Shown: piece after piece, positions 3,001 through 9,000 of the stretch
Numbering within the stretch: the first letter of the stretch is position 1
Layout: the number at the start of each line of letters is the position of its first letter
Virus record (IMG/VR): IMGVR_UViG_2718218396_000003
DNA length: 64,000 nt
Strand: one strand, 5' to 3'
Source of the DNA: a virus
Lineage: Duplodnaviria; Heunggongvirae; Uroviricota; Caudoviricetes
Program-made: the position numbers

Positions 3001-6000
3001 ATCACAAATCGCACTTTCATGAAATTCCATATATCACCTCAAATAAGTGGTTTGCTGCCTAATTTCATTTTCTGGCGACCAACACAAGTCATCTTGCTGT
3101 CAGTTGTTTGGATTTACGGTAGCCTGCCGCGTAAAGAGCTACATTTGGAAGACAAGTTGAGCCTTCATATTTTCTGGTCAACGTTGTCAGTGTTATTACT
3201 TCTGCTCTCATTGCTGGTTTGCGTTTGCATTGTAAGACCACTCGTGATGGGGTTGGCCTGTGTAGTTTGTCGGAGCTAATCGCCTCCTGACTTTGCAGGT
3301 TTGCGCGACGAGCTCTACGGCGAGAAGCTGCGGTGCCTTTAAATTCTGTTTTTCTGGACATAGATTCCTCCCGAATAAACTTTGGCGATGCAATCTCGAA
3401 GCTCCTCCTGAGACGGTTGCTTCGGCATTGCATCCCACAGCTTATGTGGTTGGGTGATCTGGCTTTTCAGCCACGTAGTCGAGAGTCGACGTTGTTTAAA
3501 GAGCCTGCCAGTCTGTTCCATTTGGCTTCCAGCGTCCTGCTGATGGTTAAATAGTACGATATGTACTTCACTTGGTCAATACAATTTGTTCTAAAACGGG
3601 GCGTTTTTTTACAACGCTTTGTATTTAATAGTATTGTTTTTTAGCGTGGGTGTATTGCCTCGGCGATGTAAGGAGAGATCAGAATTGCGTTGTTTAGTGA
3701 GTTGTATCTATTTATTTTCCAATAAATACAATTGGTTATGTGTTTTTTTGGGCGAGAGGAAAAGAAAACCCGGCATGGAGGCCGGGTTGATGATTAGCGG
3801 TGTGGCCTTGAGCGATAATGCTCACACACATGTTCAAGATTTCCATGCCTTATCCGTTCATAGGCATTCACATGAACTTCTCGATCGAATTGGTCATTCA
3901 AATTGTATGTAGACATCTGTGTTTTCTCATATTGGCGGCAGCCCTACAACCGCTTGAAAAAATGTACCAGACGCGCTAAGGTTACATCGCAAATATTGTG
4001 TACCTTAACAAGGGCTCCTTTTGGAGGCTCTGGTTAAACAGCATCAATGTCGGACTGGGGAGTTGGACATTGTGCTGAATGCTTTTGCATTATTGAGGCC
4101 GAACGTAAACCTTCAGAATTGAAGAGATGCGTTCGGCTTCTTCGTTTGTGATATCGTTAGGAATGCCTTTAATCGTTACTGTAACCCCTGATTCAGGTCG
4201 AAGAACTACTGGAAGATCATAGGTATGAAGTGCATTAGCCTTGCCTTCGACTTTTGTTGGTTCGCCAGTCAAATCTTTTTCCTCACTGGATTCTTTGTCA
4301 ATCGGAGTGTATGGGATTTCTTCACCAGACTGGAAAGCTACAAACTTTTTGATTGCACTTTCCATGCGGCTTTTATATGCAGTAATGCTGCTGTCGCTAG
4401 GCTTCGGCTCAGTTGCGTTGATGTATCGCTCGGCAAGCTCATTCACATCAAGCTGAGTAACATCACCCATTTCCTCTTCTTGGACTACCGTTAAGAGGCG
4501 AGCGGATGAGTTTTTTAAATTTCGAGCGGTGGCCTCCTTCATTATGTTCAGCGACATAAGCTCTTCAAGGAAGTCCTTGAATGCCTGCACGCTAACGTTT
4601 GACTTTGCCATTTGCTCTCTCTCTAAGTTATTGACTCAGATCGAGTTTATCCAGGAATTGATTTGCATGCAAGACTCAAGTCTTGAGAATTTCCGTTCAA
4701 GATCCACTCTCAATAAAAAAGGCCGCACCTCTGCGACCTTTCATCTCCTAAATCTCTTTTCTCTTACCTAAAGAAACAGCAGGCTGGGTCAGCCCTAACA
4801 ACTTCAAGTGCATCGGTCAGAGAAAGCTCCGTGCTATACAGGTGTTATTTCATATCTTTTTGCATCCAATAAATTTTCCATCTGTCCAGAGAGCGGATGC
4901 ACTTGATTCTTGTTGATGGCAGGACGTTTTTTCACCTGCCTCACCCTGCCATACAGGACGCTGCTCACCGATATCTATCGTCCGGTCATTGATGTTATAG
5001 ACAATATCCAGATCATTACGGATATACTCAGATGGCCTTATGCTTTCAATGAATAGATGAACTTCTTTTTGACCGCTTGATACTCATGGCCATTAAACTC
5101 CATCTATCCTCTTTACCCAAACGTCTCTTCAGGCCATTGGCTGGCGATAACTTTCCCCACAACGGAACAACTCTCATTGCATGGGATCATTGGATATTGC
5201 GGGTTTAGTGGTTGTAGAAACACCTGACCGCTATCCCTGATCAGTTTCTTGAAGGTAAATTCATCACCACCAAGTCTGGCTATGCAGAAATCGCCGGGCT
5301 CAACAGCTTGCTCAGGGTCAACCAGAATTAACATCCCGTCAGGAAAACTAGGTTTGGAACCTGTTGGTGCGGTCATTGAGTTACCTTCAACCTCAAGCCA
5401 GAATGCAGAGTCACTGGCTTTTTTGGTTGTGCTTACCAATCTCTCCGCATCACCTTTGGTAAAGGTTCTGAGTTCTGGAGAGAACATCCCAGCCTGAACA
5501 TGAGAAAAAACAGGGTACTCATATTGTTTTTTAACTGGGGCCGATGAGTATTCGCCAACAGGTGAAAATGTCCCGTCGTGGTTGAATGATATGTTATCAA
5601 TACCAAGGTATTTAAACACCACACCAATATCACTAAGAGATGGATGACGAGATCCGCGCAACCAGTGTCCAATTCCACCCTGCGTCATACCTAGCTCTTC
5701 GGCTAACTTCTCTTGAGTTATGCCGAGCTCTTTCATTCTGGATCTAGCCAGTTCATACCATTTCATTTTCATGTCCTTATTATTACGCTCTGTACTGGAA
5801 CCATCCATGCACAATGTGTATTTTTACTTGTATTTGAGAAGTACATATTGTATTTTTTATTCGTGGTTACTATGGAGGGCATATGAGCAACCTACGAAAA
5901 TATCGAGAGTCACTGAATATCTCTCAAACAACACTTGCTAAGGCAGTTGGATGCACACAGGGAGCTATCGGACATTGGGAATCTGGTCGTCGCTTCCCAG

Positions 6001-9000
6001 ACCTTAAAACATGCCGTGCTCTTGTTGCGTGTCTAAACAAGTTAGGCGCAAAAGTAAGTCTTGATGACGTGTTCCCGCCGGAGCACAAAGCCGCTTAATA
6101 AGCGGAGCCGCTCTTTGTAACAACGGACATTCGTCCTACGTCGCTGAAAAGCGAGTCCCAAGATATCTGACCAACTAAGGCCATATGCGTTTCCACGCAT
6201 ACCTTTCAACTAACTATTCACTATTGGAAATCTTAAGAAATGGAACGAACAAGTTACAGCAAACTATCACAGCGCGACGTTGATCGCGCAGAAACAGATT
6301 TACTCATCAACCTGTCAACGCTTACACAGCGCGGTCTGGCAAAGATGATTGGCTGTCATGAATCGAAGATAAGCAGAACGGACTGGCGGTTTATTGCTTC
6401 GGTCTTGTGTGCTTTCGGAATGGCATCAGACATCAGTCCGATTAGCAGGGCTTTTAAGTATGCGCTTGATGAAATCACAAAGAAAAAATCCCCGGCTGCC
6501 ACCGAGGATTTTAAGCAAATTGATATGCAATTCTGAGGGAATTACTGGATCAATCCACAGGAGTAATTATGACAAAACGTCGTAAGAAATACCAGGAAAA
6601 AGAAGAGATTCGACACCCTGATTCACCTGAGGGATGAACCGCCCCGGAAATCCTGGAGACTAAACTCCCTGAGAAAGAGGTAAACAGGATGACTAAAAAT
6701 ACTCGTTTTTCCCCCGAAGTCCGTCAGCGGGCGATTCGTATGGTTCTGGAAAGTCAGGATGAATATGACTCACAGTGGGCGGCAATTTGTTCCATTGCCC
6801 CAAAGATTGGCTGTACGCCGGAGACTCTGCGTGTCTGGGTTCGCCAGCATGAGCGGGATACCGGGGGCGGTGATGGTGGGCTCACCAGCGCTGAACGTCA
6901 GCGTCTGAAAGAGCTGGAACGTGAAAATCGTGAACTGCGCCGCAGTAACGATATCCTTCGCCAGGCTTCCGCTTATTTTGCGAAGGCGGAGTTCGACCGC
7001 CTCTGGAAAAAATGATGCCACTGCTGGATAAGCTGCGTGAGCAGTACGGGGTCGGACCGGTATGCAGCGAACTGCATATTGCCCCGTCAACGTATTACCA
7101 TTGTCAGCAACAGCGACATCATCCGGATAAACGCAGTGCCCGTGCGCAGCACGACGACTGGCTGAAGAGAGAGATACAGCGCGTATACGATGAAAATCAT
7201 CAGGTGTACGGTGTGCGTAAAGTCTGGCGTCAGTTGTTACGGGAAGGAATCAGGGTGGCCAGATGTACAGTGGCACGTCTCATGGCGGTTATGGGACTTG
7301 CCGGTGTTCTCCGGGGTAAAAAGGTCCGTACGACCATCAGCCGGAAAGCCGTTGCCGCAGGCGACCGCGTAAACCGTCAGTTCGTGGCAGAACGACCTGA
7401 CCAGCTGTGGGTGGCTGATTTTACTTACGTCAGCACATGGCAGGGCTTCGTCTATGTGGCGTTTATCATTGATGTGTTTGCCGGATACATCGTGGGGTGG
7501 CGGGTCTCATCGTCTATGGAAACGACATTCGTGCTGGATGCGCTGGAGCAGGCGTTGTGGGCCCGTCGTCCGTCTGGCACCATCCATCACAGCGATAAAG
7601 GCTCTCAGTATGTGTCACTGGCCTATACGGAGCGACTAAAAGAAGCCGGATTACTGGCATCAACAGGGAGTACAGGCGACTCGTATGACAACGCGATGGC
7701 TGAGAGCATCAATGGTCTTTACAAAGCGGAGGTAATACACCGTAAGAGCTGGAAAAACCGTGCAGAAGTGGAACTGGCCACACTAACGTGGGTGGACTGG
7801 TATAACAATCGACGATTGCTGGGAAGGCTGGGCCATACTCCTCCGGCAGAAGCAGAAAAAGCTTATTATGCTTCCATCGGAAACGATGATCTGGCAGCCT
7901 GAGTTCACAGATAAAACACTCTCCAGGAAACCCGGGGCGGTTCAGGATTAGTGGTAGCCGCAGCAAATAACAGGGCGTTCGCAGAGCGCCTTGTTGGTGT
8001 TTACAGACTAGCCAAAGCAGGAGTGAAACATGGGCGTCGTTAAGTTAGCTGATTACAGGCCTCAACTGGAGGTCGTGGAGCATCGCGTGGCAGATACCGA
8101 AGATGGTTTCATGCGCGTTGCTAACGAGATTACCGACAGTCTGCTGATGGCTGATTTAACCGTCCGGCAGTTGAAGGTGATGCTCGCTATCATGCGCAAG
8201 ACATACGGATTCAATAAGCCGATGGATCGACTCACAAACACGCAGATAGCAGCCATGACAGGTATTCATCACACTCATGTTTGCGCTGCCAAGCGCCAGC
8301 TTATTGAGCGTAAATTCCTCATTGCTGATGGCGTGAAAATCGGAGTGAACAAGGTGGTTTCTCAGTGGATTAGCCAGGACAGCTTAACATTAGCTAAAAC
8401 AGCTAATAAAACATTAGCCAAGTCGGCTAATGGGTATAAGCCAAGTCAGCTAAACACAAAAGACAATATACAAAAGACAATAAATACAAATACCCCCTTA
8501 CCCCCTAACGGGGATGGCGATGGGCAGGTTAAACCTGAACGTCGCAAGGCAGAACGAATCGACTACGAATCCTTCCTGAACGCCTACAACACCGAAGTCG
8601 GTGACAGACTTCCACACGCTGTTGCGGTCAACGAGAAACGAAAACGCCGCCTGAAGAAAATTATCCCGCAACTGAAAACGCCAAACGTGGACGGTTTCAG
8701 AGCGTATGTCAGGGCGTTTGTGCATCAGGCCAAGCCGTTTTACTTCGGAGACAACGACACGGGCTGGACGGCAGATTTTGATTACCTGCTGAGGGAAGAT
8801 TCGTTAACGGGAGTTCGGGAAGGGAAGTTTGCAGACAGGGGGATTGCATGAGACAGGATATCGAAGCTAGCGTTATCGGTGGCCTGCTGATTGGTGGATT
8901 AACTCCAACCGCCAGTGACGTTCTGGCAACGCTGGAGCCGGAAGCGTTTTCAATTCCGCTCTACCGGAAAGCCTTCGAGGTTATTCGCAAGCAGGCGAGA

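Follow-up and report, generated by a model that had tools for sequence, protein, structure and literature searches.

Putative nutL and nutR Sites With GAAA Tetraloop boxB Hairpins in a Lambdoid Stx2 Prophage and Their Relationship to the H-19B/933W N-NUT System

Results and Discussion

Anatomy and Placement of the Two Sites

The window, i.e., the whole analyzed stretch of 64,000 nucleotides (nt) from the IMG/VR virus record IMGVR_UViG_2718218396_000003, very probably contains the nutL and nutR sites of a lambdoid Stx2 prophage that belongs to the 1717/VT2-Sakai type. Each site comprises a boxA-like element and a boxB hairpin with a GAAA tetraloop, separated by a short spacer hairpin. Together the sites would define the RNA target of the N protein of the prophage, as had been proposed in an earlier note on this DNA. 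On sequence grounds, the closest characterized system is the N-NUT system of H-19B and 933W, and not that of P22. In the sampled related loci the size of the boxB loop goes together with the form of the arginine-rich motif of N, and the loop (GAAA versus GACAA) and the second half of the motif together most likely set a distinct N/boxB specificity. In kind the system is ordinary, a textbook regulatory element in well-sequenced phages.

The earlier note had described a boxA-like GCTCTTT and a boxB hairpin at both sites, and both were found, with only small corrections of the coordinates (Table 1). The GAAA loops and their complementary closing pairs were also confirmed, each being part of a stem of 5 bp. 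Stem position 2 is G-C in nutL and C-G in nutR, a compensatory change that is the only difference between the two stems. The boxA cores are GCTCTTTA at 3504 on the minus strand in nutL and GCTCTTTG at 6110 on the plus strand in nutR, and a boxA of the GCUCUUU/CGCUCUUA-like class is thus present 5' of boxB at both sites. The core GCTCTTTA equals the annotated boxA of phage 21, and it is also found inside the annotated nut sites of HK620. The proposed placement after pL and after cro, respectively, was likewise correct. The nutL boxA lies about 40 nt downstream of the inferred start of the pL transcript, ahead of N, and the nutR boxA begins 12 nt past the stop codon of cro. In phage 21 the annotated boxA-L is likewise located 40 nt from the pL start.

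The two sites stand out from the remainder of the window. They are linked by an inverted repeat with 20-nt arms that are 90% complementary. The sequence GCTGAAAAGC occurs twice in the 64 kb versus 0.17 expected occurrences, and only one of 100 shuffled sequences reached two. A composite motif, GCTCTT[TA] with a 5-bp hairpin that has a GA..A loop and lies within the next 8-60 nt, was found only at nutL and nutR in the 64 kb, and at both sites the hairpin starts 31 nt from the start of boxA. A covariance model that had been trained only on nutR sites of other phages gave 63.8 bits for nutR (E 4e-26) and 32.0 bits for nutL (E 6e-12), while the next-best match in the window had 8.2 bits (E 0.24).

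Table 1. Positions of the elements of the putative nut sites and of further features of the immunity region and its neighborhood in the window.
Feature	Position	Strand	Description	Basis
nutL boxA-like element	3504..3492	minus	GCTCTTTAAACAA (GCUCUUUAAACAA)	motif search
nutL spacer hairpin	3490..3478	minus	GTCGA-CTC-TCGAC (RNA GUCGA-CUC-UCGAC)	folding
nutL UACG linker	3477..3474	minus		
nutL boxB	3473..3460	minus	TGGCT-GAAA-AGCCA (5-bp stem UGGCU/AGCCA)	folding, covariance model, covariation
nutR boxA-like element	6110..6123	plus	GCTCTTTGTAACAA (GCUCUUUGUAACAA)	motif search
nutR spacer hairpin	6125..6136	plus	GGAC-ATTC-GTCC (RNA GGAC-AUUC-GUCC); identical to H-19B nutR spacer hairpin	folding
nutR TACG linker	6137..6140	plus		
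nutR boxB	6141..6154	plus	TCGCT-GAAA-AGCGA (5-bp stem UCGCU/AGCGA)	folding, covariance model
N gene	3361..3089	minus	90 amino acids (aa); N-terminal arginine-rich motif MSRKTEFKGTAASRRRARRANLQ (GTAASRRRARRANLQ); directly downstream of pL and nutL	
Long imperfect hairpin	3375..3445	minus	in the leader of N, after nutL and ahead of the ribosome-binding site; putative function	
Candidate intrinsic terminator, tL1-like	2769..2790	minus	after orf83 in the pL operon; 9-bp stem followed by TATTTTTGG	terminator scan
pL promoter	-35 TTGACC 3579..3574, -10 TACTAT 3556..3551	minus	same hexamers and operators annotated in Stx2 phage II	promoter scan
pR promoter region	5828..5856	plus	TTGTAT, 17-nt spacer, TATTTT, OR operators	annotation of Stx2 phage II
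cro	5883..6098	plus	71 aa, HTH_3	
cII	6240..6536	plus	Pfam Phage_CII; first gene 3' of nutR	

Conservation and Covariation of Both Hairpins

The motifs recur in homologous phages, in line with what the earlier note implied, and related sites carry the boxB as well as the spacer hairpin. The covariation was analyzed with a model-based (covariance-model) alignment of 112 sites, 53 of them distinct; an alignment with MAFFT was discarded because it had gaps within the boxB stem. Standard pairs were present in all 411 of the 411 cells, and 53 cells were changed on both sides, which was matched by none of 500 shuffles. When the partners were slid as a control, pairing fell to 17-52%. The two outer pairs of boxB vary (UA/GC/AU/CG and CG/GC/AU) and are nevertheless paired in 100% of the cases; these compensatory changes support the boxB hairpin with its purine-rich, GNRA-like loop.

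In 74 of 82 unique related sites a spacer hairpin is immediately adjacent to UACG, compared to 8.5% of shuffles. Its stem is formed by at least 10 different sequences, including GGAC/GTCC, GTCGA/TCGAC, GATTCA/TGAATC, GGTGA/TCACC, GGCC/GGCC, and GAAGAT/ATCTTC, and in relatives of the nutL spacer the stem is kept and the loop varies (CTC, ATC, ACTC, ACAC, GCAC). The retention of a stem across all these sequences marks the spacer hairpin as a conserved component of the NUT family that is shared with H-19B. The earlier note had overlooked the conserved spacer hairpin and also the predicted pairing of boxA with boxB, which competes with the boxB hairpin and is discussed below.

Relationship to the H-19B/933W System

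The nutR site of H-19B mediates N-dependent antitermination and forms two hairpins, its spacer and boxB are protected by N together with NusA, and its spacer region is protected by N with NusA/NusG and is bound by Rho (PMC3526286). The window has the complete series of elements of the H-19B/933W type, namely, a boxA-like element, a spacer hairpin between boxA and boxB that is flanked by ACAAY and UACG, and boxB itself, and the genomic placement is also the same. The H-19B nutR reads GGACAUUCGUCC-UACG-UCGCU-GACAA-AGCGA, and in the region from the spacer hairpin to the start of cII two substitutions and the absence of the loop C are all that distinguishes the window from H-19B. The two N proteins are homologous from Met1 onward (R3, R14-R16, and R18 are conserved), and their C-terminal 21 aa are identical; the arginine-rich motif of H-19B N has been described as 12-RSRRRER-18 (PMC3526286). 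The system of the window and the N-NUT system of H-19B/933W are sister systems.

The differences between the two systems concern the loop, the protein, and the architecture of nutL. The loop comprises four nucleotides (GAAA) in the window versus five (GACAA) in H-19B/933W, and the combination of GACAA with RSRRRERLKAKA is not found in the window. N of the window has 90 aa and N of H-19B has 127 aa, and the identity is 41%, as judged from the near-identical N of Stx2-86. The second half of the arginine-rich motif is RRRxRRAxLQ in the window and RRRERLKAKA in H-19B. The window nutL has kept a good boxA, whereas H-19B nutL is devoid of GCTCTTT and has an extra upstream hairpin. The same was observed more generally for nutL sites of the H-19B/933W type and the SI8 type (L084 4777-4840, L165 4306-4366, and, upstream of N, L410, which is H-19B): GCTCTTT is missing, and the extra upstream hairpin, CACC-AGGGC-GGUG, results in three hairpins in a row.

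The N protein was assigned to the Pfam family PF25694 (N_peptide) with an E value of 2e-32 and 111.9 bits versus a cut-off of 27.9, and to PHROG 271, and it is identical to N of VT2-Sakai. In the records of Stx2 II, 1717, VT2-Sakai, and 2851 it is annotated with 114 aa and a start at 3433, just 26 nt 3' of boxB. The true start is most likely the ATG at 3361, because it is preceded by the Shine-Dalgarno sequence GGGAGG and aligns with Met1 of the H-19B-type N proteins; this would result in the 90 aa assumed here instead of the annotated length. A tblastn comparison with the window N as query gave no match for lambda N at E <= 1e-3, and a search of the PDB sequences with N gave no match.

Loop Type and Arginine-Rich Motif in Related Loci

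Two pattern scans of IMG/VR with the anchor CTACG..GCTG(N or AC)AAAGC yielded at least 240 loci; a scan of GTDB genomes with an alignment of N yielded 5 loci, too few for use. Among the matches listed in the first scan, 48 of 157 do not form a hairpin, and none of these 48 has the context of an upstream boxA or a spacer hairpin. The N position of the tetraloop is exclusively A or C in a nut context among the matches listed, resulting in GAAA or GCAA, which are both GNRA loops. At least 43 nutL sites with a tetraloop (38 GAAA, 5 GCAA) precede an N gene that encodes the motif M[ST]R[RK]T.F.G[ST][AS]A.RRR.RR[AL]..Q. These motifs comprise at least 17 distinct sequences from E. coli and, among the reference phages, from the Salmonella phages SI8 and NM-3. 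At least 79 nutL sites with GACAA precede an N gene with ...RRRERLK... (at least four distinct sequences). The association of loop size with the arginine-rich motif had zero exceptions among the matches listed. An intermediate motif, GSSAARRRERLKAQA, occurs together with GACAA, which suggests that the discrimination lies in the residues that follow RRRER.

The loop class of nutL and nutR agrees in 27 of 27 distinct combinations, though the two sites are separated by the variable immunity region. Natural recombinants are especially informative in this respect. Two loci, L404 and L406, combine cI and cro of the window type (97-99% aa identity) with an N of the H-19B type, and they have GACAA at both nut sites. 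The reciprocal combination is found in L008, in which cI and cro of the H-19B type (97-99.6%) are joined to an N of the window type, and GAAA is present at both nut sites. In all three loci the recombination joint of the swap lies at the cro stop codon and boxA. In these reciprocal swaps nutR thus tracks N and not the neighboring cro.

Taken together, and with somewhat less than even confidence, we propose that N proteins with the motif [ST][AS]Ax-RRR-x-RRA-x-LQ constitute a separate class that recognizes a boxB with a true GNRA tetraloop and without an extruded base, and that this class is possibly orthogonal to the GACAA class. Such a mode of recognition would differ from those of the lambda pentaloop, the pentaloop of P22 and H-19B, and the hexaloop of phage 21. 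The members of the class may include the Stx2 phages of the VT2-Sakai/1717 type as well as Salmonella P22-like phages such as SI8 and NM-3.

The scans also retrieved rearranged loci. In L270 (1505-1792), 227 nt separate a NUT-like site of the GAAA type from a nutL with GACAA on the same strand. This locus was considered as a leader with dual specificity and rejected, as it looks like a rearranged prophage remnant, directly after an integrase gene and before a copy of IS1. In further prophage remnants (L057, L059, L075, L107) cI, N, and nutL have been kept, and the greater part of cro, nutR, and cII is gone. Of these, L057 was inspected, and its truncated cro adjoins a Q-like gene and host genes (a blc-like lipocalin gene).

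Alternative Explanations

Several points weigh against the interpretation of N and its two sites given above. Because the search patterns prescribed the inner three pairs of boxB and the loop AA, their invariance is uninformative, and the loci are phylogenetically related, so that the counts do not represent independent events. The locus L040 (IMGVR_UViG_2531839234_000006, 1-4200) has a window-type N and a GAAA nutL joined to cI, cro, and cII of lambda, and its nutR is the lambda-type GCCCUGAAAAAGGGC with the loop GAAAA. Either N also works on the lambda pentaloop and strict matching is not obligatory, or this prophage is defective for rightward antitermination. A further point concerns folding. 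The boxB 18-mers fold as the earlier note had predicted, with -7.1 kcal/mol for nutL and -6.5 kcal/mol for nutR (RNAfold; z -3.8 and -2.7), but in a context of 66 nt the minimum-energy fold keeps only the spacer hairpin and pairs boxA (GCUC.UUU) with the loop and the 3' arm of boxB (AAA.AGC). The energetic advantage of this pairing amounts to 2.1 kcal/mol in nutL and to 5.4 kcal/mol in nutR, and the ensemble probability of the boxB stem in this context is just 0.07-0.2.

The pairing of boxA with boxB might represent a functional alternative structure that gates the loading of N or of Nus factors, which would be compatible with the two sites being nutL and nutR. It is the minimum-energy fold at both sites, and it survives in the fold of the 196-nt leader (3350-3545, minus strand), which has -66 kcal/mol and a z of -3.67, with none of 200 shuffles being as stable. 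When boxA is forced to be single-stranded, as it would be when bound by NusB/S10, both hairpins return in the minimum-energy folds of both sites, and nutR gains an outer helix of 3 bp. A study of H-19B by Neely and Friedman from the year 2000 is said to name alternative NUT RNA structures in its title. On the other hand, the stability of the 66-nt folds is unremarkable (z -0.36 and -1.31), co-transcriptional folding favors the local hairpin, and the boxB hairpin is dominant (P 0.59-1.0) in the sites of SI8, 75/02, the H-19B type, HK620, P22, and lambda. We therefore regard gating as unlikely. The competing pairing was also considered as a conserved switch, which was rejected because it is not predicted in any of these other sites. 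A covariation of the base before boxA, which is G in nutL and C in nutR, with the 3' arm of boxB was considered as possible support for long-range pairing and rejected, because nutL of 75/02 (A versus C) breaks the pattern; in HK620 the base before boxA is G in nutL and C in nutR despite an identical boxB, which gives no support either. The predicted competitor thus seems to be a caveat and at most a weak lead.

A second alternative, which we consider slightly less probable still, is that N is P22-type in specificity and that the boxB elements of the window are P22-like targets, interchangeable with P22 or H-19B sites. The earlier note had called N a P22-type protein, and this holds for the Pfam family and for the C-terminus, which has LPxVALYAAGxRKSKQxTAR in common with P22 gp24 (N). 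In a tblastn comparison with P22 only residues 68-91 of N align, and these 24 aa are 79% identical; BLASTP of N versus P22 N gave 41% identity over 101 columns, with 22% gaps. The boxA core GCTCTTT (GCTCTTTA) and a GNRA-type loop fold are shared as well. The boxB loop of P22 adopts a GNRA-like fold from which the C of GACAA is extruded, and the peptide contacts this C (PMC12550061). Removal of this extruded C leaves a canonical GAAA tetraloop, and some cross-recognition is hence plausible.

The designation does not extend to the loop and to the closest relative, which is H-19B/933W. The boxB of P22, GCGCUGACAAAGCGC (PDB 1A4T), has the pentaloop GACAA (in nutL GCGCU-GACAA-AGCGC) instead of GAAA, and GACAA is present at both nut sites of P22 and of the H-19B type. 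The arginine-rich motifs, GTAASRRRARRANL in the window and GNAKTRRHERRRKL in P22, can be aligned but are divergent and only loosely similar (residues 14-30 of P22 N are GNAKTRRHERRRKLAIER), and the P22 sites examined have no evident spacer hairpin. Moreover, a mix of tetraloop and pentaloop was found in no sampled locus, and nutR follows N through the swaps of the immunity region, which together argue that the one-base difference in the loop is under selection. Also the comparison with the nut sites of P22 and phage 21, which the earlier note had suggested, gave a divided result, because the boxA core is shared while the loops, GACAA and the CUAACC type, respectively, differ.

The U-A-closed GAAA of the window matches none of the loops of P22, phage 21, lambda, and HK620. 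Lambda has the same regulatory logic and placement, and a U-A pair closes a purine-rich, GNRA-like loop, but its boxB, GCCCUGAA(A/G)AAGGGC, has a pentaloop (GCCCU-GAA(A/G)A-AGGGC), of which the fourth base is extruded (PMC12027372), versus the tetraloop of the window. Phage 21 shares the boxA GCTCTTTA and the distance of 40 nt from the pL start, and no other motif is as similar in sequence to KGTAASRRRARRANL of the window as its KGTAKSRYKARRAEL, but its boxB has an entirely different stem and a loop of the CUAACC type. The nutL and nutR sites of HK620/mEpX2 (CCCGC-CGAAAU-GCGGG, annotated as putative) also have GAAA in the loop, and a boxA GCTCTTTAAC; however, their GAAA is part of a hexaloop with unpaired C and U, the stem is a different one, the ACAAY-hairpin-UACG module is missing, and the motif of N is NARNRRRARRQAQ.

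The HK620 sites raise the question whether the recognized boxB of the window could be a 4-bp stem with a UGAAAA hexaloop, in which U and A are unpaired, like the hexaloops of phage 21 and HK620. In the annotated boxB of HK620 GAAA indeed stands between an unpaired C and U, the hexaloop of phage 21 carries a non-canonical flanking pair, and the closing U-A is invariant in our data, so that its formation cannot be proven by covariation. This invariance was partly imposed by the search pattern, though, and U and A are complementary at every site and are paired by RNAfold. In addition, the equivalent closing U-A pair of lambda is required for the binding of N (PMC12027372). A hexaloop therefore has little credibility, less than either of the alternatives above. 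It is hardly conceivable that the hairpins arose by chance or that they have no connection to N and act only in termination or in the loading of Rho: both sites are far above the background of a model trained on other phages, the transcribed strand has no convincing intrinsic terminator at either site (the sole match of the scan is on the opposite, plus strand and covers the palindromic nutL spacer and neither boxB), the loop type co-varies with the motif of N, and, although the nutR region probably doubles as a rut site, since the H-19B nutR spacer is bound by Rho and tR1 overlaps nutR, the same architecture is found upstream of N, where tR1 does not exist.

Proposed Mechanism and Significance

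In the mechanism that we propose for the tetraloop sites, the transcripts from pL and pR would both carry boxA, ACAAY, the short spacer hairpin, UACG, and boxB, in which a U-A pair at the end of the 5-bp stem would close a true GNRA tetraloop. N, with its 90 aa, would bind the boxB loop through the arginine-rich motif near its N-terminus (GTAASRRRARRANLQ), NusA would engage the spacer, and NusB/S10 may bind boxA. The conserved C-terminus of N (LPNVALYAAGYRKSKQLTAR) would hold the complex on RNA polymerase. In the leftward direction, the modified polymerase would then read through terminators, among them the hairpin at 2790..2769, which resembles tL1 and is probably a target of antitermination. 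In the rightward direction it would traverse the Rho-dependent tR1 region, i.e., the interval between nutR and cII that is homologous to tR1 of H-19B, and an insertion sequence (IS) element, and would continue to O, P, and Q. Binding, the usage of Nus factors, the terminators that are overcome, and the orthogonality of the two classes are postulated; N binding to boxB and terminator suppression with Nus factors are assumed because of the homology to nutR and N of H-19B.

The IS element is a 1,310-bp member of the IS3 family (6636-7945), presumably IS629-like. It interrupts a small open reading frame between cII and O, is accompanied by a 3-bp target duplication (GGA), and contains orfA (HTH_Tnp_1) and orfB (rve); phage 1717 does not have it. 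As it is located inside the pR operon 3' of nutR, the expression of O, P, and the genes beyond would depend on readthrough of the element by the polymerase. An IS element within an operon is a classic case for the suppression of polarity by N.

Antitermination by N from pR stands near the beginning of the events that lead to the expression of O, P, and Q and thereby of the late operon with stx. The specificity class of the nut sites has a bearing on the trans-activation by N between prophages in strains that contain several Stx or lambdoid prophages. If the tetraloop class is indeed separate, the insertion or deletion of one base in the loop, combined with an altered second half of the motif, would suffice to switch the specificity between near-identical NUT sites, and the early antitermination circuits of co-resident Stx prophages of enterohemorrhagic E. 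coli would be orthogonal. The extruded loop base would then be dispensable; in lambda this base reportedly matters for the engagement of NusA, a view attributed to Legault et al. in 1998. The pair of tetraloop and pentaloop with near-identical flanks represents a clean natural system to study how arginine-rich peptides discriminate between GNRA folds.

Genomic Context and Annotation Status

The Stx2-converting phage 1717 is 100% identical to the window over 3000-6600. The other top matches listed for this region have identities of 99.7-100% and are Stx1/Stx2 phages of E. coli O157:H7, including Stx2 II, 2851, and YYZ-2008. The record of Stx2 phage II, which is 99.7% identical, was the source of the pL, pR, and operator annotation that was used for comparison. 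The gene order on the minus strand is exo-bet-gam-kil-cIII-ea10-orf83-N, then pL/OL, orf173, and cI; after the minus-strand cI, pR/OR, cro, and cII follow on the plus strand.

The nut sites are unannotated in the records of Stx2 II, 1717, VT2-Sakai, and 2851. A description of nut sites of the VT2-Sakai/1717 type was not found in the literature searched, the coverage of which does not include several key older papers, so that they may have been described before. A scan of positions 2800-6800 with Rfam at permissive thresholds gave chance matches only and no nut or boxB family. The module of N and nutL is common: of 5,426 complete E. coli genomes, 819 contain it, and each of the eight RefSeq rows listed has no other label for the region than "hypothetical protein."

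The pL promoter (3551..3579) is overlapped by the OL operators, its transcript is inferred to start at about 3544, and an inverted repeat links its operator/-10 region to the region of pR. The pR promoter was missed by a promoter scan based on the consensus. The position of the long imperfect hairpin in the N leader is reminiscent of the RNase III site in the N leader of lambda.

Between cI and pL, the minus strand contains orf173 (4090-4611), which has no Pfam match and belongs to PHROG 2602, to which no function is assigned there. It occupies the position of rexAB in lambda and is a candidate for a gene that is expressed in the lysogen. A palindrome comes after it at 4095-4140, and farther downstream a strong intrinsic terminator (3788..3767) is located ahead of pL. 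The cI gene (5113-5772, minus strand) is a mosaic at the level of domains: the C-terminal Peptidase_S24 half of the protein is nearly identical to lambda cI as present in L040, and the DNA-binding domain at the N-terminus has no relationship to its lambda counterpart. Lastly, a strong terminator-like hairpin with a T-run was observed at 6485-6512 on the minus strand, antisense to the 3' end of cII, and lambda has the terminator of the oop RNA at the equivalent position.

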